The notes beneath the pieces were generated by a model that saw only the letters and a list, made by a program, of their open reading frames with translations, searched no databases and was not told where the DNA came from. 64,000 nucleotides of DNA, taken from assembly GCA_049296775.1 (NCBI GenBank), contig JBAQTB010000001.1:160992-224991 (forward strand). Direction: 5' to 3'. Positions 7,019 through 50,148 of this stretch are shown here, in pieces (within the stretch, counting starts at the first letter, position 1; the number at the start of each line of letters is the position of its first letter). The translations under genes and the position numbers were made by a program. Source of the DNA: Patescibacteria group bacterium (GTDB taxonomy: Bacteria > Patescibacteriota > Patescibacteriia > UBA9934).

Positions 7019-7030
7019 AAAAAAAGATAG

Positions 7031-7576
7031 CTAGTGGCGACTAATCAGCTTTAGTGCTGATTTTACTCTGTCTGCCGGCGACTCGCCAGTGACATGTGGC
7101 AAAATAGCCACAATGTCCTCCTTAGAGTACCCCAAATTTTCCAAAGCATCAGTCACGTCATCACGAACTAAACTAGATGTATCTCTATCCACCAAAACAC
7201 CCTTTAAATCTAAAATGATTTTTTGTGCCGTTTTCTTGCCGACTCCAGAAATGCTCGTAAAAAAATCTAAATCTCCAGCTTGAATATGCCGACGCAGTGC
7301 TTCTGAAGTAGCCGCAGCTAGAATCTTTTGCCCAATCTTAGGCCCAACACCCTGAACGTCAGTCAAAAGGACGAATAATTCTTTTTCATCCCGACTACTA
7401 AAGCCGTAAAGATCATGTTTATCCTCACGAATGACTTCTGACAAATAAAACTTAACCCGCTCCCCCACCTCAGCGGTAACTCTGGTAGTAAAAATCCGAT
7501 AGCCTAAACCGGAGACGTTAACTATCACTGCATCCTGCTCATACTCAGCTAAAATTCCATCTATAAAAGCCAACAT
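7031..7576 (-). CDS. ruvA: Holliday junction branch migration protein RuvA
   Basis: 181 aa; RuvA N-terminal OB fold (GYRIFTT) and helix-hairpin-helix region (GVGPKIGQKILAA..ISGVGKKTAQKI). Confidence 0.85.
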   Translation of the reverse strand: MLAFIDGILAEYEQDAVIVNVSGLGYRIFTTRVTAEVGERVKFYLSEVIREDKHDLYGFSSRDEKELFVLLTDVQGVGPKIGQKILAAATSEALRRHIQAGDLDFFTSISGVGKKTAQKIILDLKGVLVDRDTSSLVRDDVTDALENLGYSKEDIVAILPHVTGESPADRVKSALKLISRH

Positions 7577-7588
7577 ACCTTTACACGC

Positions 7589-8788: not shown

Positions 8789-8812
8789 GCAGACCTTCTG
8801 CCCTTAGCTATT

Positions 8813-12543: not shown

Positions 12544-12587
12544 ATAGGCAATAGTCTAGTGCTTACGCGCCCAAAAGTCGAGTGCAA

Positions 12588-12612
12588 CTAAAAGCCGCCT
12601 GGTGGGCGGCTA
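12588..12612 (-). terminator. rho-independent terminator after the esterase gene
   Basis: GCCGCC-cacca-GGCGGC hairpin followed by TTTTAG on the minus strand. Confidence 0.45.
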
Positions 12613-12625
12613 TTGTGAAGTGAGT

Positions 12626-13672: not shown

Positions 13673-13742
13673 ACGTGCGAGTTTAATTACAAGCAGTTTA
13701 ACACTCCTGTAGCCTTAAACCCCACCAACCCCCAGGCGTTAA

Positions 13743-15134
13743 CTAAATACGGCCGTATTCGTCAGAAAAACGCTCAATATCATCCTCACCAAAATACGTA
13801 CCCGTTTGGACTTCAATAAACTCAAGTGGCTCGTCCGCATGATTCCAAATTCTGTGTTTAGTCCCAGCCGGCACCGTAATATGGTCACCCGCTTTCACCA
13901 CCGAACTCACGTCATCTAACGTCACCGTGCCGGTACCCCGTGTAATCGTCCAATTCTCACTGCGGTGTTGATGACGCTGGTAAGACAACAATTTACCGGG
14001 ATGCAACAATAATCTTTTGCTCTTAAAGTTTTCCGTGTTGAGTAAAATTTCAAATCTGCCCCACGGACGCTCCTCAAAGGTATGCTCTTTAAGTTCTGGC
14101 GCGTTCTCGGCTGACAAACGTTGGACGATCTGTTTCAAGCCCTGGCCGCTACCGGCCTTCATGATCAATAAAGCGTCTGGAGTGTCCACCGCAATCACAT
14201 CATCTAATCCCAAAAATACGGCCCGCTTAGCCTGCGGCGTGACAGACAAGTAAGCGTTGCGGGCGGCGTCCACTTCTAAAATCGATTCGGCCCGACTCCG
14301 TCTAGCCACCACGTCTTCCCAGCTCCCGACATCGGCCCAATCACCCAAATGCGGCACCGCTAAAATACCAGTGATCTTCTCCATGATCCCCACATCAATG
14401 GCGACCTTTGGCAAAGCGGCAAAAACTTCGGCTAAGTTGGTTAAATCCGCATCCAGTGTATTGATACGCTCCCATAACTCCGGCAAATGCGTAGCAAAAT
14501 GTTCGGCCATAACTTTAGCCGGAAAGAAAAACATACCCGCATTCCAGGCCACGTTACCTTGAGCCAATAAATTCTGTGCCGTAGCTAAATCTGGTTTTTC
14601 AATAAATTTAGTGACTCGTTGACCAGTTGGAAGGTCGGAGTCAGCCTGAAGGGCTAAATATCCGTAGGCCGTCGATGGAAAAGTTGGGCTTATTGCAATT
14701 GTCACTACCGTCTGCTGACTTTCAGCTAGGGCATAAGCAAGTTCGGCCGCTTGTCTGAAAGCTTCCGTGTCCGCCATGACGTGATCGGCATGAAAAGATC
14801 CAACAATTGTCTCGGGATCCTGGCGTAACGCAATTAAAGTCAAAAGTGCTACGGCCGCAGCCGTGTCCCTAGCCACCGGCTCCCCCACCACCCGTGTCTG
14901 TTTATTAAATCGAGACAACAACGTCCGGGTACTATCCCCATGTTGTGCACCGGTGAGGATAACTATGGGCAAATTTAACAGCTCAACACGGTTCAAAGTG
15001 TCGATCAATAACGGCTGACCCGTGCCGGCTAAATCATGAAATTGTTTAGGGAATTTTTCACGGGACAAAGGCCACAAACGTGTCCCATTACCACCACACA
15101 AAATCCCCGCTAAACGTGCTGACATACCTCTCAT
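13743..15134 (-). CDS. manC: mannose-1-phosphate guanylyltransferase / mannose-6-phosphate isomerase (bifunctional, cupin C-terminus)
   Basis: GGNGTRLWPLS nucleotidyltransferase motif; C-terminal cupin; track ORF runs to 15248 but overlaps rpiB, so the internal start MRGMSAR (~15134/15125) is more likely. Confidence 0.8.
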   Translation of the reverse strand: MRGMSARLAGILCGGNGTRLWPLSREKFPKQFHDLAGTGQPLLIDTLNRVELLNLPIVILTGAQHGDSTRTLLSRFNKQTRVVGEPVARDTAAAVALLTLIALRQDPETIVGSFHADHVMADTEAFRQAAELAYALAESQQTVVTIAISPTFPSTAYGYLALQADSDLPTGQRVTKFIEKPDLATAQNLLAQGNVAWNAGMFFFPAKVMAEHFATHLPELWERINTLDADLTNLAEVFAALPKVAIDVGIMEKITGILAVPHLGDWADVGSWEDVVARRSRAESILEVDAARNAYLSVTPQAKRAVFLGLDDVIAVDTPDALLIMKAGSGQGLKQIVQRLSAENAPELKEHTFEERPWGRFEILLNTENFKSKRLLLHPGKLLSYQRHQHRSENWTITRGTGTVTLDDVSSVVKAGDHITVPAGTKHRIWNHADEPLEFIEVQTGTYFGEDDIERFSDEYGRI

Positions 15135-15215: not shown

Positions 15216-15665
15216 ATGGTAACCACTGTTTATCTGGGAGCAGATCATGCCGGCTTTGGGTTGAAGCAGAGCTTAAAGGAGCATTTAGATATGTTGGGGT
15301 TTGTGGTTGAAGACCTGGGCGCCCACGAGCTCATCTCAGACGATGACTATCCGGAATATGCCAGTGCCGTTGCTCAAGCAGTACGGAAACATCCGGGATC
15401 GTTTGGGATTCTGTCATGCGGGAATGCAGAAGGCATTTGTATAGCTGCCAATAAATTTCAGGGCATCAGAGCTGGGATTGGTTATTCAAAAGCTGCGGCG
15501 CAAACCATGCGGTCAGATGACAATGCCAATATCCTCTGCCTGCCCGGACGCCTGCCAATCAATGATGATCCCTTAGAAGTAGCCGAGGTCTTTCTGCGAA
15601 CTCCATTTTCTCATGCGCCTCGTCATATCCGCAGATTAGACGAAGTAGCTAAGCTGGACAACTAA
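15216..15665 (+). CDS. rpiB: ribose-5-phosphate isomerase B
   Basis: LGADHAGFGLK and SCGNAEGICIAANKFQGIRAG RpiB/LacAB motifs. Confidence 0.85.
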   Translation: MVTTVYLGADHAGFGLKQSLKEHLDMLGFVVEDLGAHELISDDDYPEYASAVAQAVRKHPGSFGILSCGNAEGICIAANKFQGIRAGIGYSKAAAQTMRSDDNANILCLPGRLPINDDPLEVAEVFLRTPFSHAPRHIRRLDEVAKLDN

Positions 15666-15666
15666 T

Positions 15667-16308
15667 ATGCAAATCCTGCCAGGCGTGCTCGCCTACACTG
15701 AAGCTGAGTTCAAGCAGCATCTCCTCTTTCCTGACTTCCGCGGCGTAGCACCCATGTTTCATATCGACGTCCTGGATGGCACAATGTTTAATGCCAAGTG
15801 CTGGGCGGAGGCTAAAGTTATTGGCGACTGGAAAAATTTGCCCGACATAGAGTTGCACTGCATGGTGGAAGATCCGGTAGCAGTAGCCGATGACTGGCAT
15901 CTTCATGTCCCAACCCTGAAACGGGTCATCTTTCACGCTGAGATTCACTCCCCGCTGCCAACAGTCATCAAACGTTTGCGGGCCCTGCCGGTCGAGATCG
16001 TGGTCGCTGTCAATCCGCTGACTCCGGTCGATCTTCTCAAAGGTCTAGAGATCGACGGCCTCATGATCATGGGAGTAGAGCCCGGCAAAAGTGGCCAACC
16101 TTTTTTGGGTGATGCTATTACTGCCAAAGTCAAACGGGCCAAGGCACTCTTCCCGCAACTGACAATTGCAGTCGACGGTGGCGTGACCGCACAGAATATC
16201 GGGAGTCTCAAAGCAGCTGGAGCTGATCGTTGCGTCGCTAGTTCTGCTATCTGGGGCGACCCTCACCCACTTGAGGCGTATCACGCTCTCCACAGTCGGG
16301 TGGACTGA
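15667..16308 (+). CDS. rpe: ribulose-phosphate 3-epimerase (divergent)
   Basis: FHIDVLDG, GVEPGKSGQPF and AVDGGV resemble Rpe motifs; adjacent to rpiB and transketolase. Confidence 0.6.
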   Translation: MQILPGVLAYTEAEFKQHLLFPDFRGVAPMFHIDVLDGTMFNAKCWAEAKVIGDWKNLPDIELHCMVEDPVAVADDWHLHVPTLKRVIFHAEIHSPLPTVIKRLRALPVEIVVAVNPLTPVDLLKGLEIDGLMIMGVEPGKSGQPFLGDAITAKVKRAKALFPQLTIAVDGGVTAQNIGSLKAAGADRCVASSAIWGDPHPLEAYHALHSRVD

Positions 16309-16404
16309 GGACTTTTTGTCTACAGGCGAATTGTGATATACTCATTGTAGGTTTTTTACCATAAAAAGTTACGTTCTTTACGTATTCATCCTTAACTTTA
16401 GGCT

Positions 16405-28287: not shown

Positions 28288-30873
28288 ATGAATGAGATTT
28301 TAGCTGGCTTCAGAAAGCATCAGTTTAAAAAAATAGAGGCTCATCCCGAGACCAAGCCTGCTACCAAAACTGAGAATCGCGAAACTGCCACTCAGCAAAT
28401 CGCTGAGCAAATGATAGACATAGCTAATGAATTTGGCGTTGAAGCCTTACAGATCATACTGGCTAAAATGCAGACTGCCTTAACTGAGGGTCGCGGACTA
28501 GAGGCTGGCGAACTGGCAGAAGTGATCAAAGAGAAAGCTACTCGATCAGAATTCCAAGAAACGGCACTGAAGGCCTTTGAAGGCCTTGGCTTTGTAGAGC
28601 AACTCGATAACGGCACCGTGATTGTGGATGATCAAAAGCTCTTATCTGAATTTAGCCTCAGTCAACTACGCGATGTCGCCGGTGAAGAACTGGCCAAGTT
28701 TGGTGATTTTAAAACAGATCGCATCACTTTTTTAGGCAATGCCTTTGCAGATAAACAGGTTATTTTAAAAAACGACTGGAAACAAAACCCAGAAACACAG
28801 CCAAAGCCGCTTTTCTATCTACCTAATACACGTCAAGAATCCTTGGACATAGATCGCATTCGCGCCGCTGACTTTCATTATGGTCTCTGGGAGATCCCCC
28901 AGGCCAGTAAAGGTGCCAAAGAGCGAATAGAAGAATTATCTCAACCTGCCAGCGCTACAGAGCAGAATTATTTCGAAACCTCACTCGCGGCTGTAATTTA
29001 TCATCCAAAATTTGGCGATGCTCAGCGTGACGAACAGGGCAAACTTCACACCTATCAATCTGGCGAAAAAAAGGCTATCTCGGGTCAGTGGCTTTGGGAT
29101 CAGGGCCTTAAAATGAAGTTTACAGATGGCAAGCGTGAATTGCGTAGTAACGCCAAGGAGGTCATTCAAGAGTTTGCACCAAATATTATCGAAAATAGCT
29201 TACTTCAAGCGCAAGATTTTGGTCTTGAAAGGTCAGTAAATCGATCTCAAGAAACAGCCCGAGTCAGCAACAACGGCGTGGTGAGTATCGGAGGTGTAAA
29301 GCATTACCTCGGACGAGCGTACGCTGGGCGTGCAATTCGTATCGATGAAATTGGTGATGGCACAGCCGCATTAGTAGAACTAGCTGACAACGGTCAGGGT
29401 ACTCCGGTGGGCCTGATCGATATCTACAAAAAAGGTGATCCACGCCTAAGTGAACGAAAAACTAACACAGGCTCATTCTTTGAGGCTGGGGGTAAAATTA
29501 CCCATCCTAGAGCTTTTTCAGAAGCTGAATATCAATCACCCAAACCAAACGAAGATCCAGACGTTTTCTTTGCTCGCAAACAAAAATTCGAAGCCTTTAA
29601 TGCTGTTTTAGATTTTGATAATGTATTAAAAAGCCAGGGTTATCCGGCCATGTTCAGTCTCTCGCCAGAACTTCAGGGCAACATCAGAAATCATGGCAAT
29701 CAAATTAACAAAAATAAACAACTATATCTTAATTTTATAGATAGCTATGGCAAACCCGGCTTAGAGATAATGGCCGCGGTGATAGATAATAGCTCAATTG
29801 CAGAAAAAACCCTTGAAACCGCCCTTGCGTTGCCGGAGACAGAGCGAAATACACTCATTCCTAGACTCCATGAAGCCCTTCTAGCTCGCCATGTGGCCTT
29901 AAACGAATTAAAGGCTCTGCAGCTGGCAAACAAAGTGACGGATTTAGAAGTTAGAAAATTTACCTTTGAAATTAATCGCCGTGTCACCTCCCTACTTACA
30001 GCCGCCGAGGATAGCGCCGGGATTAGAGAAGGTTTAAATACAACTAACAAGTCAGAGGTCCTTAAACTCTTAGTAAAACAAGGGCAAGAGCTGGCTTTAT
30101 TTGCTAATATTTTTAAGGATGCCTTCAAGGGTAGTCCGGAAAACGTAATGGAAGGACTAAAGGGGGTGGAATTAAAAGTCGAGACTTGCGCAGAACTTTC
30201 AGACCTGGATAAAACTGCGATTTTAGATATTCACGCACAAAACTGGAAACAAAAACCGGATGTTTATCCAAAACTCCGCAAAGCGCTTGAAATAGCGCTA
30301 GAGTCAAACACTTCAAAAGCCTACGTGATGAAAAATGGTCATAACGTCACCGCCTTTATGCGGTTTGATCAAGTGGGCAATGACCCTAATCAACTGTACG
30401 CGGCCTCATTATTAGTTAAACCTGGGCTAAGAGGTTCGGCCATAGGAGAATCCTTCATGCGTGCCGCAATGGATGAATGTGCCGAAGATCATATTTTAAA
30501 GGCTGACTTCTTCCCTGAATTTATAGTAGGCACAACCTATGTAGAACAAATGGGATGGGTAATCACCGGTGTGGAGGAAGTGGATATTGGCAATGGTAAA
30601 ACGGCTAAACAGTTCATGATGGAACGTAATGATCGTAAAAACTTAGATTATGTAGGCAAGTCAAATAAGGATCTATCTAAGTCTAAGGGTCTAAACATAC
30701 AAACCATTGATGTACGCAACGGCACAGCCGAACTAATTCAAGCCGTAGAACAGGCCCAAGTCAAAGGCCAAGTAGTTACTCGTTATTTTGCTGATCGTAA
30801 AAACCCTAATCTGCGGACAATGGTGTTTGAGAATCGTCAGGATGAACAGATGGTACCTCAATCAAAGACATAG
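28288..30873 (+). CDS. large orphan protein (861 aa) with a C-terminal GNAT-like acetyltransferase motif
   Basis: Long ORF, no TM; C-terminal VKPGLRGSAIGESFMRAAMDE resembles GNAT motif A. Confidence 0.5.
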   Translation: MNEILAGFRKHQFKKIEAHPETKPATKTENRETATQQIAEQMIDIANEFGVEALQIILAKMQTALTEGRGLEAGELAEVIKEKATRSEFQETALKAFEGLGFVEQLDNGTVIVDDQKLLSEFSLSQLRDVAGEELAKFGDFKTDRITFLGNAFADKQVILKNDWKQNPETQPKPLFYLPNTRQESLDIDRIRAADFHYGLWEIPQASKGAKERIEELSQPASATEQNYFETSLAAVIYHPKFGDAQRDEQGKLHTYQSGEKKAISGQWLWDQGLKMKFTDGKRELRSNAKEVIQEFAPNIIENSLLQAQDFGLERSVNRSQETARVSNNGVVSIGGVKHYLGRAYAGRAIRIDEIGDGTAALVELADNGQGTPVGLIDIYKKGDPRLSERKTNTGSFFEAGGKITHPRAFSEAEYQSPKPNEDPDVFFARKQKFEAFNAVLDFDNVLKSQGYPAMFSLSPELQGNIRNHGNQINKNKQLYLNFIDSYGKPGLEIMAAVIDNSSIAEKTLETALALPETERNTLIPRLHEALLARHVALNELKALQLANKVTDLEVRKFTFEINRRVTSLLTAAEDSAGIREGLNTTNKSEVLKLLVKQGQELALFANIFKDAFKGSPENVMEGLKGVELKVETCAELSDLDKTAILDIHAQNWKQKPDVYPKLRKALEIALESNTSKAYVMKNGHNVTAFMRFDQVGNDPNQLYAASLLVKPGLRGSAIGESFMRAAMDECAEDHILKADFFPEFIVGTTYVEQMGWVITGVEEVDIGNGKTAKQFMMERNDRKNLDYVGKSNKDLSKSKGLNIQTIDVRNGTAELIQAVEQAQVKGQVVTRYFADRKNPNLRTMVFENRQDEQMVPQSKT

Positions 30874-31624
30874 GCTTGCCGCCGCCTAATTGCCAAAAAT
30901 ACTCAAACTGTGCTCGGTGTAAAGCTGCAATATTTTCGTCCTCTATCAAAACAGAGATTAATTTATTTGGTCTCAAGGTCAGATAGCTCACTTTATTATT
31001 ATAAACCTCGGTAGCCGTTTTAAAGCCAGCCGGGAAATCCTTTAAATAAACTACTTCTGTATACGGGGTAGATTGAGCCGCAATAAAATCTCGACTAGCC
31101 TGGCTATCTGGCAGAATTAACCGTTTTATAATCTTCTTTGCGACTCGTTGCTTTAAATACCCCCGGTTAATCTCGGCGATTACACCGATAACTGCCGCTG
31201 TGTCCAAAAAAGTCATAATTCCGTTAGTTGCCGCTAAAGAATCCTCCAAGACCTCTTTAAAACCCTCAGGGCCCTCAAACACCTGAATAGCTGGGCGGCC
31301 GGTGGTTAAATTGAAGGTTGAGGTGAGTTTTGGGAGTTCAGCCTTGAATTCAGCCTCTAAACGGTCTGTTTCAAGGCGTTTGGCCTCTACTAAGGAGGCT
31401 AATTTGGTTGGTTCGGCGGCCCGGTAGATCTGCAGTTTACCGGCCGTAACCGTGGCCAATCCCCTTGAAACTAGCGCGGTAAGCAAATTATAGACATTTC
31501 CACGCCCTAATCCTGAGTCTGGAACCAAATCACTGGCCTTAGACTCCCCTTTTAACAGGAGAAGTTCATAGAGTTTGGCCTCATTAGCAGATAAACCAAG
31601 TTTTTGCAGGATATGGGTATACAT
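30806..31624 (-). CDS. TrmB-family transcriptional regulator (paralog 1)
   Basis: N-terminal wHTH LGLSANEAKLYELLLLKGESKASDL...GRGNVYNLLTALVSRGL; similar to the CDS at 44673-45437. Confidence 0.65.
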   Translation of the reverse strand: MYTHILQKLGLSANEAKLYELLLLKGESKASDLVPDSGLGRGNVYNLLTALVSRGLATVTAGKLQIYRAAEPTKLASLVEAKRLETDRLEAEFKAELPKLTSTFNLTTGRPAIQVFEGPEGFKEVLEDSLAATNGIMTFLDTAAVIGVIAEINRGYLKQRVAKKIIKRLILPDSQASRDFIAAQSTPYTEVVYLKDFPAGFKTATEVYNNKVSYLTLRPNKLISVLIEDENIAALHRAQFEYFWQLGGGKPMSLIEVPSVHPDDSQTPLSAD

Positions 31625-31793
31625 ATATATAGGGTAAAGGTATCAGATTTTAGAAGTTAGAGATTAGAGTTTGAGGGTTAAATATCCTCCGCATGGCCCT
31701 AGTATACTCTTTACTGTCATATTGGGAATGGCAGGGTGTGGATAGATTCATGGCTTATCTTAGCCAAAATCTAGCATACGTGCCAGGGCGTGA

Positions 31794-31822
31794 TTGACAA
31801 AAGCTGGAAAAAATGCTACAAT
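31794..31822 (+). promoter_or_regulatory. consensus sigma70 promoter (TTGACA - 17 nt - TGcTACAAT, extended -10)
   Basis: TTGACA at 31794-31799 and TACAAT at 31817-31822 preceded by TG; no ORF follows on the + strand. Confidence 0.5.
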
Positions 31823-31829
31823 GGTTTTA

Positions 31830-32844
31830 CGAAGATGAGAACAGGAAGACTTCTAGCCTCTTCGCCCAACAGACTACATTAACTGAAACGGCGACAGACT
31901 GAACCTTCCAACAATTAGAGAGAGCCCTAGTCCACGGGTAAATGTGGATCGATGAAAGTCCCGTCTATATGTAAGTATAGATAGCGGAAGTTTCATAAGG
32001 CAGGTTTGCGTATCTCTCAAAAAGAAGACACGTAAACCTGCCTTTGTTTGTTTGTCCGAGAGAGGACGAACAAGTGAGGCGCTCGTACTGATGGGTCTTT
32101 GAGAAACGGTTCCCGGCCTCGTCTGGGAGTATCCACTAAGTGGAGAGAGACCATTTCTCGAACAACTATCAGCTCTATGGATTCCTACTTCGCTCTCCCC
32201 TCTGGGATTGAGCCTAGACAGGACCACGTCGGATTGATCAGGACCTACGTTAGCTCGATTTCGATCGAGTAGATACACGGTCAATCCCCCATTGCATCCC
32301 ATAAGAATGCAATGTGGTAATGAGTGCGAGACGGCCCAAGCCGTCTCCCCTCCAAAGCTCCGCAAGGAGCGAAGGGGGGAAGATACTTGGACTGTTCTCA
32401 CTCCTTATCACTAAAGGAGAGAGAAGCCCCTTAACAATTGAATAACAAGAGTTTGATCATCGATATCTCGATGTGTCGACTATGGAATCTCCTAGCCGCT
32501 TCCGACGCTCTGCGCCGATGAAGCACCCGCTAGACCCATGGCATCGCACGTTCTGATCCTTTGATCCTAGCCTCATAAGCCGCTTGTTTTAAACATCCGG
32601 CCCGTCCTGAAGTGACGCGCAAGCGTCTACTTCAGGGAGGAACTCTCAGTGGCTGTGACCTTGCTCTCCCCCTTAATAAGGGGGAGTTAAGAGGGGGTCG
32701 TAGCTAGTGAGAGCAGCAGAATCCCCAACGAAGTTCGAGCGCAAGCGAGAACGAAGTGGGATTGTGCTGCGCTAGTTTGTCAGGTACATCGCCGTTCAAA
32801 ACGGGCTAAGAGATTAACTTCTCATGCCCAAGAACAGCACTCGA
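31830..32844 (+). ncRNA. candidate large structured non-coding RNA (unclassified)
   Basis: ~1 kb with no credible ORF on either strand; several perfect hairpins with stable tetraloops (CTCGAT-TTCG-ATCGAG; GCTCC-GCAA-GGAGC; CCTGAAGT..GACGC-GCAA-GCGTC..ACTTCAGG; GAGACGGC-CCAA-GCCGTCTC; GGGATTGA...TCAATCCC). Confidence 0.35.
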
Positions 32845-32981
32845 GAGAGTGCACGGCAATGAATCTGACAGCAGTTTCCAGCCCAGGGATGTCGGCAATG
32901 TTGTCGATTTCCCAAACGCTGGAACACATTCCCTTTGGGGAGGTCGATTGCAAGACCTAAAATTGCAAAATGGAGTCTTAA
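32845..32981 (+). promoter_or_regulatory. conserved ~135-bp 5' leader, copy A (operator-like dyad + hairpin)
   Basis: ~90% identical to 36320-36454; contains TCGGCAATGTTGTCGA (32892-32907) and CCC-UUUG-GGG hairpin; ends at ATGACC start codon. Confidence 0.6.
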
Positions 32982-33539
32982 ATGACCCTCAATAACAGCA
33001 GCAGCGTCACCTTCCTCTCGGCAGCGGAGCTCAGGCTCCGCTGCGAAAACGAACTCCAGAAGGCCGAGGAGAACCTCAGTCGTCTGGAGTTCGAGCAGAT
33101 GGAAGCGGATGAAAAACTGTATGTCGCGACACAAGATCTGTCCGATCATCGGGCGGACGAGCTCGCACTGATGAATGAGATCAAGAACTTGAAGGAAGCA
33201 ATCAGCGCCAACCGTTGCCGCTCGGCGCAACAGATCGAAACGATGCTGAGTGACAAAGAGGAGCTGAAAATGGCGGAGGCGCGCCTCGTCTCCGCCACCG
33301 CCACCCGTCGCACCGCGGCGGAGGAGAAGATCAAGGCCTACAACCTGCTCCTGGCCGCCTCGGCGGCCACCCGCGCCGCGGAGCGGCGCGTCAAAGCTGC
33401 CATGTTCAATTCACGCCGTGCTGGGATGGAATTTGGCACGGACACCCGTGCCGGGGCCCCCACCGCCCGTCGGGCGGCGAAGGCCGCCAAGGCGGAGAAG
33501 GACCGCGCGATGCGGTCCCAAATGAAGGGCAAGAAGTAG
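32982..33539 (+). CDS. coiled-coil protein with basic C-terminal tail (island gene, unknown function)
   Basis: 185 aa; GC3-rich codons; heptad-like E/K/A-rich sequence; N-terminus MTLNNSS.. paralogous to MTHSFIN.. of the 36455 gene. Confidence 0.5.
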   Translation: MTLNNSSSVTFLSAAELRLRCENELQKAEENLSRLEFEQMEADEKLYVATQDLSDHRADELALMNEIKNLKEAISANRCRSAQQIETMLSDKEELKMAEARLVSATATRRTAAEEKIKAYNLLLAASAATRAAERRVKAAMFNSRRAGMEFGTDTRAGAPTARRAAKAAKAEKDRAMRSQMKGKK

Positions 33540-34419
33540 CCCTACCATAGTCAGACATTGCAGCTGACTTAAAGGTCTGCAAAAGGTTTCTGACTTTTAG
33601 ATAAAGTCAGCGATTGGTCCCCGCACCTGGACTACGCGTCGAGCGTTATCTCAACCAAGCCCGGAGCATAAAATGCCGGACAGCAAGAGGCGCGAGTAAC
33701 ACGCGCCAGTAACAGAAAAATTTGTTACGCCTCCCGCTTGAGGCCCAACCACCACTCTACCTCTTTGAAGCGGCAAAGATGTAGACGCTAATCACGCCAG
33801 ATTCTGCATCGAGCAGTTTCTCGATACATACATCAGGAGTTGGTCATCATGACCAAATTGAGTAAGTAGTCGCGTTGATGGGCGACGATAAAAGCGCCAT
33901 CAACCCTGCGTTGCTCTGGGGCCGAGCAACAGGATTGTGACTCCTTGATCACATGTCGGTAGTACATAACTATCATGCACACATGCACAGGTTGAGAGCT
34001 CGCGCTATGCACATCGCGTAGAGCTCTCCTTGATTGAATCACTGATTGAAAAATCGGAGGTTCTGAAAGGAAAAAACAAACACCCCCAATCAGTCTACGA
34101 ATAGTTTTTAAATTTTGTCTCAGCGCTGCGGAAACTATTAGCTTAGCTAGTTGTTTTAACAGCTCTCGGGAGAGAGCCAAGTTCAACCGGTGACTCTAGC
34201 ATAGTGCTAGGGAAAGCCGGACACAGAACGCCTAAATTGAAACCTTCAGATAAATGTTCAGACGTTAGTCGGTCTTGTTCGGGCAACCGAGCCAATCCGC
34301 CGTCAATGTGCAGAGATGCACAGCATTCAGCTGAATAAGTTTCTCTCTAGGAAAAACCTAAAATCCTGGGCGATTATCGTTCAGGTCGGCAGGCATGCCG
34401 GCAACCATATGGAGGCAAT

Positions 34420-35319
34420 ATGCGTATCAACTTCGTGTTCGGTCAGGTCGTGTCGTTCGAATCCCTCGCCGAGAACACCGTCGCGCTCGACGGTGCGGTC
34501 CAGGGGCCGAAGCTCGACCCCAAGACCCGTCGTTACAGCTTCGATCACCACGCGGATTGCATTCGTTTGATCACCCTGGCCACGTGCCAGCAGGTGTTCG
34601 CCGCGATCTTCCTCGGTGGGTTGATCGTCGACAACGAGACCACGGTGGTCATCAACGAGTTGGACGCGGACACGATCTTGTCCGTCTGGCTGTTGAAGAA
34701 CCCGGGTAGGGTCAACGAGCCGGCCGTGAAGGAGCTCGTGGACCGCGTGGGCTACACCGACTCCCACGGCCCGGCGTTCGCGCCGCACTGGCTCCACTTC
34801 CAACTCTCCAGCTGGAAGAAAGAGGATCAGACCATGGCCTTCCTCGAGAAGTGCCTCGGCCTGATCGACCAGTTTTTCGCCGGCGAGCTGAAGGAGCCGG
34901 CCGCGCGCCCGACGCGTGAGTCGATCGGATTCGGCTGGCACCCGCTGAAGGGTTGGGCGGAGGTCCAGACCCAGAATGGGTTCGGAGACCTGTACAAGTC
35001 TGGGTTCCTGGCGGGGTTCCTCGCGGAGCCCCAGGCGGACGGGACGGTGACCTACACGGTCGCCAAGAAGTCCGATCTGGTCGACTTGCCGGTCGGCCCG
35101 AGCCACGTTGACCGGAACGCCGACCCGGCGAGCTACCGGTCGGACACGGTCCTCGGCAGCCTCGCACTCCTCGAGCTCGAGGCTAACCCCTCCCAGGCGC
35201 ACAAGGCGAACTGGGGCGGAGGATCCTCAGTCGGCGGCAGCTGCCGCAACGAGGACAAGTCGGCCTCCCGGTTGACCCCCGAGCAGGTGCTCGAGGTGTT
35301 TAAGCGGTTCACCAAGTAG
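34420..35319 (+). CDS. hypothetical protein (island gene, GC3-rich)
   Basis: 299 aa; very strong third-position GC bias supports this frame over the Arg-rich antisense ORFs 34381..35202 and 34712..35167. Confidence 0.55.
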   Translation: MRINFVFGQVVSFESLAENTVALDGAVQGPKLDPKTRRYSFDHHADCIRLITLATCQQVFAAIFLGGLIVDNETTVVINELDADTILSVWLLKNPGRVNEPAVKELVDRVGYTDSHGPAFAPHWLHFQLSSWKKEDQTMAFLEKCLGLIDQFFAGELKEPAARPTRESIGFGWHPLKGWAEVQTQNGFGDLYKSGFLAGFLAEPQADGTVTYTVAKKSDLVDLPVGPSHVDRNADPASYRSDTVLGSLALLELEANPSQAHKANWGGGSSVGGSCRNEDKSASRLTPEQVLEVFKRFTK

Positions 35320-35671
35320 CGCGGGAGTCCTGGCTTGTATACCTAGGACGATCCCCCCTTTGTTCCTAACGGAACTCCGGAGGGATATAAAAACGTATAC
35401 AAAAAATCGCCGGGTGGAGTTGCTGCACAGCACTCCCCCGGCTCGCGAATCCCGATTCGACTGCACGTCAATCGGGATTCCCTTAACTGAGTTCAGAAGT
35501 TTAACTTGTGAATTGAGTTGAGGATGTACAACAAATCATCCTGCTTCTGAAACCATCTGCACGATGTGTTTCAGGGATCCTTAACTAACTTCTTGATGCC
35601 AAGCTCGAGGAGTTAGTTGAGGATCCGCTCAACATGCCCAAATCTAGCTGTGGAATGTCTCCGCAGCGCGT

Positions 35672-35932
35672 TTGTGTATATGGCGACCTCTGGGAGACAT
35701 CATGCGATGCTTTGTTGTTGAAACCTCCGGCGAATTGCCGGAAAAAAATGAGTTGAAAGACCCAGATGAATTCTGGGAATTGGAGGACGGCCTGGCCGTC
35801 CTCCTCCTCGTGCCCCGGGACCAATGTCCCGGGGAGTTCACCGCCTTTCCGGCGGTGATCGAGATTGAAGTCGTCGGGCAATGGCCCGACGGAAGTTCGA
35901 AAAAGAAAATTTGGGCTGTCGTCAAAACCTGA
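35672..35932 (+). CDS. small acidic hypothetical protein (uncertain)
   Basis: 86-aa ORF in the island; moderate coding look. Confidence 0.3.
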   Translation: MCIWRPLGDIMRCFVVETSGELPEKNELKDPDEFWELEDGLAVLLLVPRDQCPGEFTAFPAVIEIEVVGQWPDGSSKKKIWAVVKT

Positions 35933-36319
35933 CATTAGCCCAGCGCCCGCTCGCTGCCGGGCGATAAATATAGCAGTGCTTCAGAGGCTGTACGCACATA
36001 CGGCCTCTGACTACCACGTCTTTAAACTGACGTGGTCTCATCTGAGATTTTGAGTTAATGACTCGAAGTATCAGATGAGGACTCACAAACTGACATGCGC
36101 CAGCGAGACATATTTGTCCGCACACATGAAAGTAGTTTTCTCTCCCTACACCAACCCACTAGCAGGATTTTTCTATGTTTTCGAGAGTGGAATTACTTCT
36201 CTCTCGTAATCTATCTCTTGTTTACATAAAGAGATGTCGCTGTTGGGTTGCTGTGGGGACCATAAATCACCGGATCCCCCGGTGCTTTGGCGTTTCCACG
36301 GAAATGGACATGGACTCGA

Positions 36320-36454
36320 TAGAGTGCGTGTCCATACATCTGAGCAGTTTCCAGCCCAGGGATTTCGACAATGTTGTCGATTTCCTGAAAGCTGGAACAC
36401 ATTCCCTTCGGGGAGGTCGATTGCAAGACCTAAAATTGCAAGTTGGAGTCTCAA
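36320..36454 (+). promoter_or_regulatory. conserved ~135-bp 5' leader, copy B
   Basis: Perfect 16-bp dyad TCGACAATGTTGTCGA (36365-36380); CCC-UUCG-GGG hairpin (36404-36413); ends at ATGACC start. Confidence 0.6.
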
Positions 36455-36805
36455 ATGACCCATAGCTTCATTAATTTGAGTGAAGTTCGGAACGAGATCT
36501 GGTCGGTCTCGGTCAAAATGGAGAGGATTGCGAAAGTTCTGTGTCAGAAGAACCTTCGCGCCGAGCTGGAGGCCGCCCTCGAGGGGAAGGCCGCCGCCCC
36601 CCACGACCTAGAGGCGATTTTACGCCTCAACGCCGCCAGGAGAAATTTGGCGGCGGCGTTGGAGAGGGCGGGATCTTGCGATCCCGAGGCACTCCGCGAG
36701 GAAGAAAAAGTCCTCGCAGCGGCCCTCGCGGGGCTGCTGGAACGCGAGGCCCGCTGGGCCTCCGTGGTCGAGAATGAGGAGGCCGAAGCGCGTCTCCTGA
36801 GCTAA
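36455..36805 (+). CDS. coiled-coil protein (island gene, paralog of the 32982 gene at its N-terminus)
   Basis: Conserved ATGACC start after the leader repeat; the track's 36443 start is a TTG in the leader; A/E/R-rich helical sequence. Confidence 0.5.
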   Translation: MTHSFINLSEVRNEIWSVSVKMERIAKVLCQKNLRAELEAALEGKAAAPHDLEAILRLNAARRNLAAALERAGSCDPEALREEEKVLAAALAGLLEREARWASVVENEEAEARLLS

Positions 36806-36995
36806 AGCGTCGTTGGGATGCTGTGAACACCTCAGTTCACAGCATCCCAAATCTACAAAACATTAAAAATATTTTCATCGATAGAAATTTGCTTACCGTC
36901 ATAAGCAGGTTTCTCTCGAGGAAAAGTTCCTGAGAGACAATAACCGGCCCTACCCTGGGCCACGGCAGCCATGCCGATCAGCACGGAGGTGCACA

Positions 36996-38966
36996 ATGGC
37001 GAATAATTCTCACGTGTCTGTCTGCTGGGGATCCCCGGATGACCGGGGACTCGTCGGTCAGCTCGAGGGGGGCGGGCGCAAGCTCGTCCGCCTGGATAAC
37101 AAGGCTAAAATTCCGGCCGATATGCGGCCGGAACCCAACACGGTTCAGCCGTGTCGGGTGTCGCACGACACGGCTCCGGACGCCCCAGGGCGCGGCGTCA
37201 TGTTCGTGGTACCGATCGGCCCGGCGGTCGATCAAAAAACTGCCCGTGAACGGCGGATGGCTCAGAACCTGTCAGAGGTTCGGGCCGAGTGGAAGGCCGC
37301 CTGGCGACGGGCAGTGGTCTCCGACCTGACCAACTTGGTCAGCGGGTACAAGGCGAACATCGGGTACGACACCCGGTGGAACGTCGGAAGAGAGAATCTT
37401 GAGCCGCAAAACCCGCTGTTGCGGGTTGTTGATGACCAGGCGGGAGTCTGGACTAAGCCCTGTCAAAACGGGGTGTATATCTGGGAAGAGTGCGTTCTCG
37501 TCTTGCCCGAATTGGGCCAAGGCGAGGAGCTCTCCAAGCGGCTACTGGCCGCCTGGCGACAGAGCTCCTCCCTAAACGTGGGGCTCGAGAGGCTGACCGA
37601 TCTCGGTCTCAGCCTCACCGGACCCATCGACCGCACGGTCACGGTTAACGTACAGAATTACGTTATCGTGAACTGGAGCGGAGTGGTCAACGGTGAGCGC
37701 ATCACCATCGCCGAGAGGTGGTTCAAACCGGGAGACGGCGAAACTGGGGATGAAGACATCCCCGAGGTTGCCACCGCTTTGGCAGTATGGTGCAAGAAAG
37801 TCGTGGACGATTGTAGTCGTGATGAGTCCTGGGACACACTGGTCTCAGGGGTCGTGACACTGAGCTCGCACGTCACACCGACGTTCGAGTATCTGTCGCC
37901 AGACGAGCGCGGCACGCGCACGGGCGGTGGAAACTCAATCAACGTGGTGCATGTCGACGGCCAAAAAGTGGGCAATGTATCAGCCCTTTTCTGGCCCGAG
38001 GCGCAGGCCTTCTTTGGCCTGGTAGAGGGCGGCCATCACCCCGGGCTGTCGGCCCGTCAGCTCCGGGCGTTCAACCTCGCCCTATCTGACTGGACCACCA
38101 GCGGGCGACTGGGCCCTCGTGGTCGCGCAGCCATGCTGGCTGAAGCTGGGGTCAATTACGACCCAGCAGCAGTCATGGCCGCCGGAAAAACTGACAAAGC
38201 GCGGCGTGACTTTGAGGCTGAGGCCCAAAAAGTCGCCACACAGGCTGCGGAGGCGGCGGCCTTGAAAATCGCCGCCGCAGAAATCAGTAACGCGGCCAAA
38301 ACAGTTATGGCAGCGAAGCACTTCAGGTGTTTTGCGCCAACGCTGCAGGCTTTGCTGACCAGTCTGGTCAGCGAGGCCAATCGGCCATTCGTTGAAGATT
38401 ACTGGCTCTCCTGGGCGCAACGCGTGATGCTGCAAATCCAGGAAGCCACACCGGCCGCAATTGCGGCAGCTGGCCAGGAAGAGCAAGGCGAAATCCTTGC
38501 TAACTTTCAGGCATGGAAAAAGCGCAGCGGCGGGCCCACTAACAATGGACAGGGCTGGGTAATCCAACCGGACGGCTCGTGTCGAGAGCCGGACCGCATG
38601 GACAAACCCCGGCCTCGCCATGATGAGGGCACCCAACATTGGGACCTCGTCAGTGGTCCGGAACTGGCAATCTCGTGGAGCAGAGCGCACTCTGGCGCTC
38701 CCCACGAGTTCGCGGTGGCCAAGATGCCCACCCGCGACCGGATCACAAAGGCGCAACGGGCAACCGTTGTGCGTCTCCAAACGGAGATCGCAGAAGCCGG
38801 AGGCGACTGTGGTAACTGCTGGGGGCTTACCCCAGTCATCGCGGCTCCCGCACTCGCTCCGCGAGTAACGGCGCCAGCCTCACCGTCACCTGAGGTGGCG
38901 AAAGCGAAAGTATCAGCGGCTGATGTCGAAAAGCTTAGAGAAGCTCTCGGCATCAAGCGCCGCTAA
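36996..38966 (+). CDS. large orphan protein (up to 656 aa; true start may be an internal Met)
   Basis: GC3-rich frame; Ala-rich helical central region; C-terminal CGNC and Pro/Ala-rich tail; antisense ORFs 38082..38780 and 38507..38956 judged spurious. Confidence 0.5.
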   Translation: MANNSHVSVCWGSPDDRGLVGQLEGGGRKLVRLDNKAKIPADMRPEPNTVQPCRVSHDTAPDAPGRGVMFVVPIGPAVDQKTARERRMAQNLSEVRAEWKAAWRRAVVSDLTNLVSGYKANIGYDTRWNVGRENLEPQNPLLRVVDDQAGVWTKPCQNGVYIWEECVLVLPELGQGEELSKRLLAAWRQSSSLNVGLERLTDLGLSLTGPIDRTVTVNVQNYVIVNWSGVVNGERITIAERWFKPGDGETGDEDIPEVATALAVWCKKVVDDCSRDESWDTLVSGVVTLSSHVTPTFEYLSPDERGTRTGGGNSINVVHVDGQKVGNVSALFWPEAQAFFGLVEGGHHPGLSARQLRAFNLALSDWTTSGRLGPRGRAAMLAEAGVNYDPAAVMAAGKTDKARRDFEAEAQKVATQAAEAAALKIAAAEISNAAKTVMAAKHFRCFAPTLQALLTSLVSEANRPFVEDYWLSWAQRVMLQIQEATPAAIAAAGQEEQGEILANFQAWKKRSGGPTNNGQGWVIQPDGSCREPDRMDKPRPRHDEGTQHWDLVSGPELAISWSRAHSGAPHEFAVAKMPTRDRITKAQRATVVRLQTEIAEAGGDCGNCWGLTPVIAAPALAPRVTAPASPSPEVAKAKVSAADVEKLREALGIKRR

Positions 38967-39165
38967 AATCTCGGACGTCGCTCGTCGCACAACGACGACG
39001 TCCCCTTATCTGATAGCTTCAGGCTTCTCTCTCCCTGGAGTTATCAGATGAGGACCAGTGAATTCCGTTCAGTTTTAAATCATGGTGATTTGGAGCTTGC
39101 GGAAAACTGGAAATCACGGTCTTCAAATGACCGATCAACCGCGCCAATAGGCGCAAGGAGGCCTC

Positions 39166-39876
39166 ATGGTCATCGAAAAGTTTTGGACCGTTGTCGCGGG
39201 GAAGATTGGAACCGCCCATACTGGGCGGGACGGCGTCGTGCGGGACTTTCGTCCCGCCGAGATCGAGTTCTGCTCGATGAACGGAACGGTCTTATTGAAA
39301 CCGCGAGACGGCGTCACGCCAAGGGAGACATTGAAACTCTCCCGGCGTGAGTTGTCCCGTGAGCCGCTGGAAGGCGGTGAGCGGGATCGCATCACCTTCG
39401 AGGTCTTCGCGACCTTCATGGAGGTGGAGATCTCAGAGGTCAGGACCGAAGAAGTCCTGACGGCTCTCGGCAAGGAGCGTGCCGAGCAGCGGTCCGCTCT
39501 TGAAAAGCAGAGCTGGGCTGATGCCCAGCTGTTGAGAAAGGCTCAAGAGCCCGAGGACCGCCAAGCCCTCGAAAACTGGATCACGGCCCGACTGGCCGAC
39601 CCACTCATGGGCGGCCAGATGCAGGTTAATCACCTGCTCCGCAAGCCCAGTCGGGCGCGGTGGGCCGTCGGTGCCCTCGTGAGCCGATGGCTGCGGTGGG
39701 CCCCGCTAGAGGGACAGTTCAACCATCGCAACGATGTGTTGAAAGCTCTCCAGGTCCGCTCCGGATCTACGGAGTACTACGCCGGAGGGCAGCTGGTGGC
39801 AAGCCGGGTGGCGGAGGTGCTCGAAGAGCGCCGCGCCGTTCGCAAGGCCGAATGGCTCGCGCGTAACAACAAGTAA
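39166..39876 (+). CDS. hypothetical protein (island gene)
   Basis: 236 aa; RBS AAGGAGG 6 nt before ATG; GC3-rich. Confidence 0.55.
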   Translation: MVIEKFWTVVAGKIGTAHTGRDGVVRDFRPAEIEFCSMNGTVLLKPRDGVTPRETLKLSRRELSREPLEGGERDRITFEVFATFMEVEISEVRTEEVLTALGKERAEQRSALEKQSWADAQLLRKAQEPEDRQALENWITARLADPLMGGQMQVNHLLRKPSRARWAVGALVSRWLRWAPLEGQFNHRNDVLKALQVRSGSTEYYAGGQLVASRVAEVLEERRAVRKAEWLARNNK

Positions 39877-40047
39877 ACCTCCGGCTTCTTTCTTGCTTTC
39901 TGAGCCTGATCAGTAAAGTAATTCGAATGTCGCTTGCACCTGCGGCATTCGCTCGTCACGTCGTTTACATCCGACGTGACCTCATCCGATACCTTGAGAT
40001 TCTCTCTCGCTCGAGGTATCAGATCAGCTCATGTGTCAGCATGAAAA

Positions 40048-40085
40048 ATACGATCGATCCAAAACTGGAACGATCGTATTTTTTG
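40048..40085. terminator. bidirectional hairpin terminator at the right edge of the GC-rich island
   Basis: ATACGATCG...CGATCGTAT 9-bp stem followed by TTTTTTG; abuts the VanW stop. Confidence 0.5.
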
Positions 40086-40086
40086 T

Positions 40087-40977
40087 TTATTGCATGATCA
40101 CGGTAGCGCCGGGAGGGGGCAGATATTTCATCTCAGAATGATTCTCGCATACCAGAGTATCTCTCAAGAGATTGCCGGTACGACGATCGATAACTTGTTG
40201 AAAAAGTTTATTTTCTCTGTAAAACTTACCGGTTTTTTGGTCGTGAATAAACTGGTGATCTCGTTCAATGATCGAATAAGCAACCTTAGGCTCATGACTG
40301 GCCCGGAGTTCGCCACGCAGAAATTTATCATCAACCCAAACTACAAGCTCAAAATCCGTTTCCGTGTCATTCCGGAATTGGAGATCGACGTAATTATAGA
40401 AAATCGTGGCACCACTCGCAAAAGGCAAAACCCTTCCCGAATCCGGGAAAGCATCAAAGCTATGACGGTACCGTTCTGTCACTGTAAGCGGAGAATGCAA
40501 CGCCATCCAGTAAAGTAAGTTAGCCATCTGACACAGCCCTCCCCCCACACCTTCAATCACTTCTCCATTGGAAAGCAGGATCCCTGGCAGAAAACCACGC
40601 TGAGCTGTAGGGCGACCCACTAACTTCCAGAGTGAAAAAGTTTCACCGGGCTTAATAATTATCTTGGTGATCTCTTTGGCAGCCAATTGCAGATTCGTGA
40701 TCTTATTGTGTTGTAAACGCATGTCAGTGTTACCCAGCTTGCGCAATAACAATGACTTATGCGAGTAAACTTTAAACGGTAAAGGTGCCTGACTACGCTC
40801 ACTAGCGTAGCAGGTAGCGCCAGTACGCCAAACAAACTGACGCTGCAAGCGATGATGCTCAATAGCCAGCTGACGAATGACTGGATTTTTCTTTAATGTC
40901 GATAACATAAAACGGCTAAGTATACTCAAAAAAGCAACTTTTGTCAATCGCTTACCTTGTATAACGCTACCGTACAA
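40087..40977 (-). CDS. VanW-family protein
   Basis: VanW core GVGGGLCQMANLLYWMALHS; N-terminal hydrophobic segment. Confidence 0.75.
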   Translation of the reverse strand: MYGSVIQGKRLTKVAFLSILSRFMLSTLKKNPVIRQLAIEHHRLQRQFVWRTGATCYASERSQAPLPFKVYSHKSLLLRKLGNTDMRLQHNKITNLQLAAKEITKIIIKPGETFSLWKLVGRPTAQRGFLPGILLSNGEVIEGVGGGLCQMANLLYWMALHSPLTVTERYRHSFDAFPDSGRVLPFASGATIFYNYVDLQFRNDTETDFELVVWVDDKFLRGELRASHEPKVAYSIIERDHQFIHDQKTGKFYRENKLFQQVIDRRTGNLLRDTLVCENHSEMKYLPPPGATVIMQ

Positions 40978-46775: not shown

Positions 46776-46896
46776 AGTCTCATTGTCCTGGCGACAACCT
46801 ACTCTCGCCACTCTTGACTACCATCGGCTCATGCAGGCTTAACGACCGTGTTCGAGATGGGAACGGGTGTGGCCCTGCAGAAAGTGTCACCAAGAC
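46776..46896 (-). rRNA. rrf: 5S ribosomal RNA
   Basis: Reverse complement contains CCGATGGTAGT and GCGAGAGTAGG 5S motifs; ends approximate. Confidence 0.8.
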
Positions 46897-47094
46897 AATA
46901 CTACCTTTTATCGGAAACAATCCAAGTTTTTCATCTACGTTGTCAGAAACCTCCGTCGGACTCACCATAGGATTTACCTACACCTCGTCCTTACTCGGTT
47001 TCTTCCTAGTAGCTGATAAAACTTAATTATTTCCGTCGTAATGACTCGTTATAGAGGAAAGTAACCATCATTGCTGCGCTCAACTTTTGAGCCG

Positions 47095-50148
<3,054 letters not shown>

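Follow-up and report, generated by a model that had tools for sequence, protein, structure and literature searches.

A leader sequence of about 150 nt occurs twice within a foreign-looking gene island (~31.8-40.0 kb) of a 64,000-nt stretch of Patescibacteria DNA (contig JBAQTB010000001.1; hereafter the window, with positions counted from its first letter), each time at the start of a different open reading frame (ORF), here called gene A and gene B. We put the probability at roughly 0.5 that this duplicated segment is a structured 5′-untranslated region (5′-UTR) module that works at the level of the sense RNA, as part of one long transcript of the island, and that was copied by recombination or gene conversion. 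The evidence for action at the RNA level consists of the predicted fold of the leader, differences between the copies that spare the structure, the absence of promoter-like sites, the hairpin-rich context, a parallel duplicated leader in a related island, and the RNA-related proteins encoded by such islands. An earlier note on this DNA had proposed either a repressor-controlled promoter/leader or a cis-acting RNA shared by the two genes. The RNA half of that proposal is plausible and is the one we prefer, given the fold and the structure-compatible differences, whereas the repressor half was not supported. Related loci, designated below by L-numbers, were drawn from genome and assembly collections.

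A duplicated leader before two unrelated genes

The core of the leader is present as two direct copies, A and B, that align without gaps over 119 nt and are identical at 110 of them (92%). This alignment showed significant conservation and upheld the duplication, although the extent (~135 bp) and identity (~90%) given in the earlier note required adjustment: over the full spans listed there (32845-32981 and 36320-36454) identity was about 87%, counted from the pairwise alignment, and the duplicated unit measured about 150 nt. The greater length follows from a homologous 5′ extension of lower identity (32838-32869 versus 36313-36342; 22 of 32 positions, or 69%, against a shuffled mean of 16.7), which contains a short hairpin (copy A, GCACTC-GAGA-GAGTGC; copy B, GGACTC-GATA-GAGTGC). 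On the 3′ side, the repeat had been said to end precisely at ATGACC. Instead, identity continued through ATGACCC, 7 nt into each ORF (start codons at 32982 and 36455), and then dropped to chance level (57%, versus 53% for shuffled sequence). Identity along the unit was stepped, from 53% (chance) to 69%, 92%, and 57% (chance), which points to constraint or conversion acting on the core rather than to uniform decay.

The smaller elements noted earlier were recovered in both copies. The 16-bp dyad is perfect in copy B (36365-36380; TCGACAATGTTGTCGA) and matches at 15 of 16 positions in copy A (32892-32907; TCGGCAATGTTGTCGA). Each copy also contains the GGAACACATTCC element, two TTGCAA hexamers, and a CCC-UUYG-GGG hairpin, which reads CCC-TTTG-GGG in copy A and CCC-TTCG-GGG in copy B.

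Within the window, the repeat is confined to these two sites. A 21-mer and a 30-mer taken from the leader each occurred exactly twice in the 64 kb (0 in 100 shuffles), and R1, a covariance model built from the leader pair, recovered only the two known sites. Elsewhere in the window there was no match or complement of at least 12 nt to the leader, and no trans-pairing partner of that length. A repeat search found no terminal inverted repeats flanking the duplicated unit. With two copies only, both within the island, and without terminal inverted repeats, the leader resembles neither repetitive extragenic palindromes or bacterial interspersed mosaic elements (REP/BIME) nor miniature inverted-repeat transposable elements (MITE). 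When the same sequencing run was assembled independently, the assembly broke exactly at the leader repeat (L001 and L130), which shows that the repeat is present in the reads; no new arrangement was gained from it.

Genes A and B look like real genes, each with a GGAG Shine-Dalgarno (SD) sequence 6 nt before the ATG and a coding-type distribution of GC over codon positions. They had been taken for paralogs, but BLASTP gave no alignment between their products at E ≤ 100, and the two share only composition (Ala/Glu/Arg-rich). Neither had a homologue besides itself in protein libraries of 5.8 billion and 1.8 billion sequences, and exact-protein look-ups returned matches only from the same sequencing run, so a single sample holds these genes. 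As a consequence of the duplication, two unrelated ORFan genes would have one common translation-initiation region. A perfect hairpin with a 16-bp stem (TTGGGATGCTGTGAAC-N6-GTTCACAGCATCCCAA; 36813-36850) and no U tract lies 8 nt past the stop codon of gene B.

Several coding candidates that overlap the repeat were considered and rejected. For minus-strand ORFs crossing it (32814-33230 and 36173-36604), nearly all of the differences between copies would be nonsynonymous; plus-strand ORFs over the two copies lie in different frames; and a mini-ORF of copy A (ATGGAGTCTTAA) is lost in copy B. Stop-codon reassignment opened no ORF in the intergenic regions of the island. On these grounds, we regard the duplicated segment as non-coding.

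Searches for relatives of the leader were negative outside its own genome. Rfam 15 contained no family for it at the gathering threshold over the whole window, and at E ≤ 10 (32500-36600 and 31650-33000) it returned only chance microRNA and small RNA matches far below threshold. A leader 21-mer had 0 matches in IMG/VR, and the 6 matches of a leader 18-mer (GGTCGATTGCAAGACCTA) in JGI metagenomes were all chance matches with dissimilar flanks. BLASTN searches with the leader against 81 loci and with the whole island against 87 loci, and R1 against 44 sources (about 716 kb), found the leader only in the same genome. The island at L005 has a duplicated leader of its own, 67 nt long (15682-15748 and 16174-16240) and 96% identical between copies. 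These copies end in GGAGGCyAAsATGGCC before two different ORFs, the second of which is truncated by a toxin-antitoxin insertion. Leader sharing thus recurs in these islands.

Predicted fold of the leader and the operator question

On the sense strand, the same helices (P2/P2a/P2b, P3, and P4) were predicted for each copy alone (z-scores of -2.6 and -4.1). The antisense strand folded less well (-1.0 and -2.0); the G-U pairs of the sense fold would be C-A mismatches there. The consensus fold of both copies has 30 pairs and forms three hairpins around a three-way junction with invariant loops and junctions. A tentative helix, P1, closes the junction, and a predicted single-stranded tail carrying the SD sequence and the AUG lies on its 3′ side. 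When the copies were folded within 291 nt of context, z-scores were -7.05 and -5.19 (0 of 200 shuffles each), and P2, P3, and P4 were retained in both the minimum free energy (MFE) and the centroid structures. The P2-P2a-P2b stack, comprising 16-18 pairs broken by asymmetric internal loops over ~47 nt, was predicted in all contexts.

The copies differ in 11 alignment columns, 9 of which are unpaired; the 2 paired columns keep their pairing (G-U to A-U in the dyad, and G-C to G-U). Among random 9-substitution mutants of copy A, 0.5% retained the structure of A as well as copy B does. Beyond the junction, the SD sequence can form a predicted mini-hairpin with GACCC, which consists of the G of the AUG and the next four bases (codons 1-3); the other two bases of the start codon, A and U, would then lie in the loop. 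On its 3′ side the repeat ends (+7) where this mini-hairpin does, which gives the boundary a structural rationale.

From these observations we propose the following model. The module of ~150 nt would comprise the last hairpin of the head, the structured RNA of ~1 kb with which the island transcript appears to begin (see below), followed by the three-hairpin 5′-UTR, and its 3′ end would be formed by the SD GGAG, the AUG, and four further bases. Copy A would stand at the end of the head, before the first gene of the array, and copy B would have been placed before the fourth gene by recombination or gene conversion. The module would act on the sense strand of a long polycistronic transcript that starts from the promoter at 31794. 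In that transcript, the stable long hairpin (the tip of which is the dyad) and two short hairpins would form a folded block ahead of an SD that is exposed or only weakly sequestered. This would probably give genes A and B the same mRNA processing or stability and the same translation rate, possibly with an island-encoded RNA-binding protein as partner.

The earlier note interpreted the dyad as an operator. Under that interpretation, it would be a double-stranded DNA site bound by a dimeric repressor, which would co-regulate promoters before both genes. The palindrome itself, perfect over 16 bp in one copy and over 15 of 16 in the other, and the presence of a TrmB-family regulator gene at the island border are in keeping with this. 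However, a promoter consensus scan of 31500-40200 found no sigma-70-like site in 32500-33000 or 36000-36460, the nearest being at 32431 and 33948, so that neither dyad has promoter-like hexamers close by. The dyad is the apical part (P2b tip) of the ~47-nt interrupted hairpin, whose asymmetric loops and better folding on the sense strand do not suggest a DNA site, and its single mismatch, in copy A, is a G-U wobble pair in RNA only. It occurs nowhere else in the window, and a search of homologous loci found neither dyad nor leader in the orthologous islands L083, L005, and L084, which have retained the TrmB gene and the head. A DNA-binding Pfam or NCBIfam domain is not recognizable in any island protein, and the TrmB gene is 1.2 kb away from the dyad. 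Two palindromes at the head promoter (31714-31766), conserved across three genomes, are better candidate operators for the divergent TrmB-family regulator than the 16-bp dyad. We therefore regard an operator function of the dyad as very unlikely.

The three-way junction raises the further question of whether the leader might sense a ligand or a protein, with the junction as an aptamer that controls the SD mini-hairpin. Its invariant loops and junctions, the ability of the SD to pair with codons 1-3, and an alternative pairing of the GCAGUU strand with the GAUUGC loop of P4 would all suit such a riboswitch-like element. These features are offset by the lack of any Rfam family even at E ≤ 10, by downstream genes that are ORFans without a metabolic theme, by the instability of P1 in context, and by the lack of a homologue family on which a conserved pocket could be shown. 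A sensor of this kind is extremely improbable. Intrinsic-terminator attenuation does not fit either: what comes after P3 (AGGUCG) and after P4 (AAAAUUGC) is not a U run, and neither leader contains a plus-strand terminator-like site (a hairpin with a U tract).

Several points weigh against a functional 5′-UTR module. The L083 and L005 islands are without this leader, so it is not needed for an island to work, and recent duplication or ongoing gene conversion could yield 92% identity without any function. No pair is changed on both sides (0 pairs, in only two copies), and there is thus no true covariation. The fold was predicted from the same two sequences, which biases it toward an outcome with no broken pairs. 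The reverse simulation (B to A) gave 11.5%, and MFE-based tests gave 5.5% and 9%, all of them weak, and P1 was unstable in the 291-nt context. With two copies only, the function of the leader as an RNA is a proposal.

Much of this would also be expected of a neutral by-product, in which a recent ectopic recombination or conversion event copied ~150 nt (the end of the head, the first leader, and the start codon) to a second gene and supplied only a ribosome-binding site, the preserved structure simply reflecting the youth of the repeat. Such an origin would account for the lack of a homologue elsewhere in the collections searched, for a divergence of just 8%, for orthologous islands that do without the leader, and for the marginal outcome of three of the four simulation tests. 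It does not predict the stepped identity (69% in the 5′ 32 nt versus 92% in the core), which uniform decay of one duplication would not produce. Nor does it predict that all 11 differences spare base pairs, that the 3′ end of the repeat coincides with a structural element, or that L005 has a parallel duplicated leader. We consider a purely neutral origin unlikely, and the structured 5′-UTR module remains our preferred reading.

The island: promoter, head RNA, hairpins, and gene cassettes

The six island genes are all on the plus strand (Table 1). GC content at third codon positions (GC3) is 0.64-0.90 in these genes (32982-39876), versus 0.39-0.57 in host genes, and the intergenic regions are 190-880 nt long with about 48-51% GC. 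Because the same GC contrast is seen in orthologous islands of diverged genomes, it is maintained and not merely the result of recent import. The island proteins had no match in Pfam, PHROGs, PADLOC, or NCBIfam, and no recombinase match was found among the six; phage and plasmid collections gave one weak jumbo-phage match and no plasmid match. Sister islands additionally encode a DEAD/Helicase_C/HA2 helicase. Taken together with the DHH-like and tentatively S1-like proteins of the window, this makes the island proteins look RNA-related. Outside the island, the window contains 23S and 5S rRNA genes (46786-50129, minus strand), and the 14 kb upstream of these genes contain no 16S gene. At 3,028 nt, the 23S match is longer than the 2,925-nt model, which suggests about 100 nt of insertions.

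Table 1. Features of the island and of the duplicated leader (window positions)
Feature	Position	Strand	Detail
TrmB-family regulator gene	30806-31624	-	Divergent from the island promoter; TrmB domain
Two palindromes (candidate operators)	31714-31766		CTGTCA-N9-TGGCAG (31714-31734) and TGGCTTATCTTAGCCA (31751-31766); conserved in three-way alignment with L083 and L005
Sigma-70-type promoter	31794-31822	+	TTGACA-17-TACAAT, extended TG; 11/12 match; both hexamers conserved in L083 and L005
Head: conserved, non-coding, highly structured leader RNA, ~1 kb	31830-32837	+	BLASTN blocks versus L083 and L005
5′ part of unit A	32838-32869	+	Last head hairpin, GCACUC-GAGA-GAGUGC, and linker; 86% identical to L083 3474-3567
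Leader copy A, core	32870-32988	+	SD GGAG 32972-32975; AUG 32982
P1, copy A (tentative closing helix)	32871-32876/32961-32966	+	GCAGUU/AAUUGC
P2, copy A	32877-32882/32918-32923	+	UCCAGC/GCUGGA
P2a, copy A	32886-32889/32910-32913	+	GGGA/UCCC
P2b (dyad), copy A	32892-32897/32902-32907	+	UCGRCA/UGUCGA, consensus pairs
P3, copy A	32931-32933/32938-32940	+	CCC-UUYG-GGG
P4, copy A	32941-32945/32954-32958	+	AGGUC-GAUUGCAA-GACCU
Predicted mini-hairpin, copy A	32972-32988	+	SD GGAGUC/GACCC; -5.3 and -7.7 kcal/mol for the two copies
Gene A	32982-33539	+	185-aa Ala/Glu/Arg-rich ORFan; GC at codon positions 1/2/3, 0.61/0.46/0.79
Intergenic hairpin	33994-34028	+	Loop UAUGCACAUCGCG; BLASTN block 33985-34037 versus L004
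Candidate divergent DHH/DHHA1-like phosphoesterase gene	34420-35319	+	299 aa
76-aa cassette gene	35702-35932	+	41% identical to L083 7593-7868
Cassette-end hairpin	36037-36082	+	CUCAUCUGA...UCAGAUGAGGAC
5′ part of unit B	36311-36342	+	Degenerate copy of head-terminal hairpin, GGACUC-GAUA-GAGUGC; pairwise alignment
Leader copy B, core	36343-36461	+	Helices as in copy A at +3473; SD 36445-36448; AUG 36455
Gene B	36455-36805	+	116-aa Ala/Glu/Leu/Arg-rich ORFan; GC at codon positions 1/2/3, 0.67/0.44/0.74
656-aa protein gene	36996-38966	+	Tentative N-terminal S1/OB-like RNA-binding fold; conserved in four islands
Cassette-end hairpin	39005-39055	+	CUCUCUC loop
236-aa cassette gene	39166-39876	+	31% identical to L083 8371-9009
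Last cassette-end hairpin	39981-40030	+	Partly degenerate; marks island end, just before host terminator 40044-40083

The sigma-70-type promoter upstream of the head, the only strong site in the promoter scan, is the likely start of the island transcript. Other Patescibacteria contigs share this arrangement: in L005 and L084 a GNAT gene and the TrmB gene (minus strand) precede the island, and in L083 a methyltransferase gene takes the place of the GNAT gene. Counterparts of the head (window 31830-32870) were found in L083 (2540-3570) and L005 (7870-8770). RNAalifold predicted 228 pairs from these three sequences, of which 43 are changed on both sides yet still paired, counts that are biased because the program uses covariation to choose pairs and had only three sequences to work from; the paired changes cluster in clear local hairpins. 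The head contains no ORF under any stop-codon reassignment and had no Rfam match, and a head 15-mer gave 36 chance matches in IMG/VR without extended similarity. We consider it a candidate for a new large structured RNA or a giant 5′ leader. Copy A of the duplicated leader directly continues the head on its 3′ side, and the 92 nt that end at its first base (32779-32870) are 86% identical to L083 3474-3567, where the head runs into a different, shorter leader. Since copy A adjoins the conserved head, it probably occupies the ancestral position, and copy B would be derived. The leader had been described as unrelated to anything else in the window, which is correct for its sequence but overlooks its context, as copy A is the 3′ continuation of a ~1-kb structured leader in an island organized by hairpins.

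A second kind of hairpin (CCUCAUCYGAU...loop, often CUCUCUC...AUCAGAUGAGGAC) is found after many of the cassette genes, on the coding strand in every case. There are 3 copies of this cassette-end hairpin in the window and 13 outside it (5 in L082, 5 in L083, and 3 in L005). Nine of them were aligned to a 20-pair model, in which 88.8% of the cells were paired and 8 of the 20 pairs showed changes at both positions. Covariation was strong, its observed score being attained in 0 of 500 shuffles, and slid-register controls gave 34-44% pairing. One U-G pair was invariant. Another conserved type of intergenic hairpin, just upstream of the cassette-end hairpin, looks to be represented by the structure with loop UAUGCACAUCGCG, which recurs in L005 (~15607-15643) on a different, mutually compensating stem (GAGAGCUC... 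versus GGAGAACCG...).

The CUCUCUC motif occupies the apical loops of many cassette-end hairpins, and its complement, GAGAGAG, is found in the head. Five of the seven GAGAGAG copies in the window lie in the ~1-kb head (at 31918, 32058, 32143, 32417, and 32843), and CTCTCTC is located at 36199, 39027, and 40002. The same polarity, GAGAGAG in the head and CUCUCUC in the cassettes, was seen in L083 and L005; possible causes are RNA pairing between the loops or inverted sites in the DNA. Over 13 nt, one head loop (32416-32428) is perfectly complementary to a cassette-end loop (39022-39034), the longest such match in the window; the longest in L083 is 12 nt. By our own estimate, the complementarity beyond the 7-nt core is not statistically compelling given the search space, and we treat it as a lead only. 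In L084, the TrmB-adjacent island (7519-13934) has many of its cassettes (PIN, HicAB, and genes of no assigned function) on the minus strand. The plus strand there has five occurrences of a 27-nt motif (TCGGAGCGAGAGAGAACTCACTTCGAA), so that CUCUCUC lies on the coding strand of the minus-strand cassettes. A cassette can therefore be inverted along with its hairpin.

Cassettes turn over between islands. Their order is shuffled, and toxin-antitoxin cassettes are present in the sister islands. The flanks of the first cassette (window 32779-32870 and 33889-33952) are 86% and 81% identical to L083 3474-3567 and 4143-4205. The ORFs between them (185 aa in the window and 135 aa in L083) are both Ala-rich and show no similarity; it seems that one ORF took the place of another between conserved non-coding flanks. 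An island with a DHH-like gene lies at a different host locus in L133. It has a 1.7-kb non-coding stretch (6824-8519) with four GAGAGAG motifs and no sequence similarity to the window head, and at its far end (15879-16376) is a fragment of a tyrosine recombinase (Phage_integrase), a hint that these islands act, or once acted, as integrative elements.

This turnover bears on the possibility that the two leaders serve as homology arms for deletion, duplication, or swapping of cassettes. Between them lies a 3,473-bp block that holds gene A together with the DHH-like and 76-aa genes, and recombination across it would switch the ORFan that stands behind the head and promoter. The direct orientation of the repeats, homology that stops sharply just inside the ORFs, replacement of the first ORF between islands without protein similarity, the shuffled cassette order, and the assembly break exactly at the repeat (L001 and L130) all fit a recombination substrate. 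No variant lacking the block was seen, with a single sample holding these genes; no recombinase is recognizable among the six island proteins; and 119-150 bp is short for efficient RecA recombination. A role of this sort would in any case be compatible with, and not exclusive of, a function in RNA. As the explanation of the repeat, we judge it quite unlikely, and we retain the 5′-UTR module.

More broadly, we tentatively suggest, as a possibility that falls well short of being probable, that the leader is one piece of an undescribed RNA-organized platform for gene cassettes in Patescibacteria. The parts of such a platform would be the promoter with its ~1-kb GAGAGAG head RNA, a one-strand array of GC-rich, fast-turnover cassettes, cassette-end hairpins with CUCUCUC loops, and RNA-handling proteins (S1-like, DHH-like, and a DEAH-type helicase). 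Head loops and cassette-end loops would interact, through RNA-RNA kissing or guided processing, and shared leaders would be portable 5′ modules for expressing and exchanging cassettes. Searches of the literature for cassette islands or large RNAs in Patescibacteria turned up no relevant work.

Comparison with known systems

Polycistronic mRNAs of bacteria and phages contain intercistronic RNase III processing hairpins and 5′ stabilizer hairpins, such as the phage T7 R sites and ompA-type 5′ stem-loops. The leader resembles them as an irregular stem-loop of ~20 bp between cistrons, served by one strong promoter, placed before SD and AUG, and repeated at more than one gene. An irregular ~20-bp RNA hairpin between cistrons is indeed what the fold predicts, and the scan for promoters and terminators suggests a single transcript. 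The sequences are unrelated, and here a whole ~150-nt module including the start codon is doubled at 92% identity and occurs only twice.

Repeated operators of temperate phages, such as lambda-type operators and mycobacteriophage stoperators, sit on or by promoters and are conserved as short sites. The dyad, too, is a short palindrome of a foreign island and stands ahead of more than one gene. Unlike them, it belongs to 119-nt blocks with no promoter and no recognizable repressor, and its two copies lie within a larger RNA-type fold. Orphan or silent cassette systems with recombinational switching, including the orphan toxin tips of contact-dependent inhibition (CDI) and Rhs systems and pilS/pilE, likewise have a conserved segment followed abruptly by unrelated sequence, with direct repeats in one locus. 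In those systems, however, the repeat is a coding segment with homologous variable families, whereas the repeat described here consists of a non-coding leader and the first 7 nt of an ORF, and variants produced by switching were not observed. The leader is, on present sequence evidence, a lineage-specific structured mRNA leader that was copied once. Its kind is familiar, and two copies cannot establish a family; it is a clean natural example of two unrelated genes sharing one translation-initiation module, which is not surprising by itself.

The island as a whole is more reminiscent of integron attC arrays, including clusters of attC sites lacking integron-integrases (CALIN). Like these, it is a same-strand array of small, largely ORFan genes behind one promoter, with imperfect structured repeats: a hairpin with a conserved base and a variable middle follows each gene, the gene order varies, and toxin-antitoxin genes occur in sister islands. 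The attC core sites (RYYYAAC...GTTRRRY) are missing. The island hairpin ends in CCUCAUC...GAUGAGGAC instead, and neither motif is present in the leader hairpins. Further differences are the lack of an integron integrase among the island genes, intergenic regions of 190-880 nt that are far longer than cassette spacers, a 1-kb structured RNA in place of attI, and a duplicated leader without integron counterpart.

The head, for which only three alignable homologues are available, can be compared with the large RNAs OLE, GOLLD, and ROOL. It is similar in its length of ~1 kb, in its many conserved hairpins with compensatory changes, and in its association with foreign or mobile DNA. It differs in that it has no Rfam match and is contiguous with a protein-coding array, of which it is probably the 5′ leader. 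Patescibacteria are uncultivated bacteria with reduced genomes, rich in unexplained introns and "dark" genes. Against this background, the island surrounding the leader is more novel than the leader itself, with RNA structure that is better conserved than the ORFs it flanks, complementary loops, and RNA-handling-like proteins. If the tentative reading of it is true, an RNA-structured cassette island would be a new kind of accessory-gene platform, and one tractable by metatranscriptomics.

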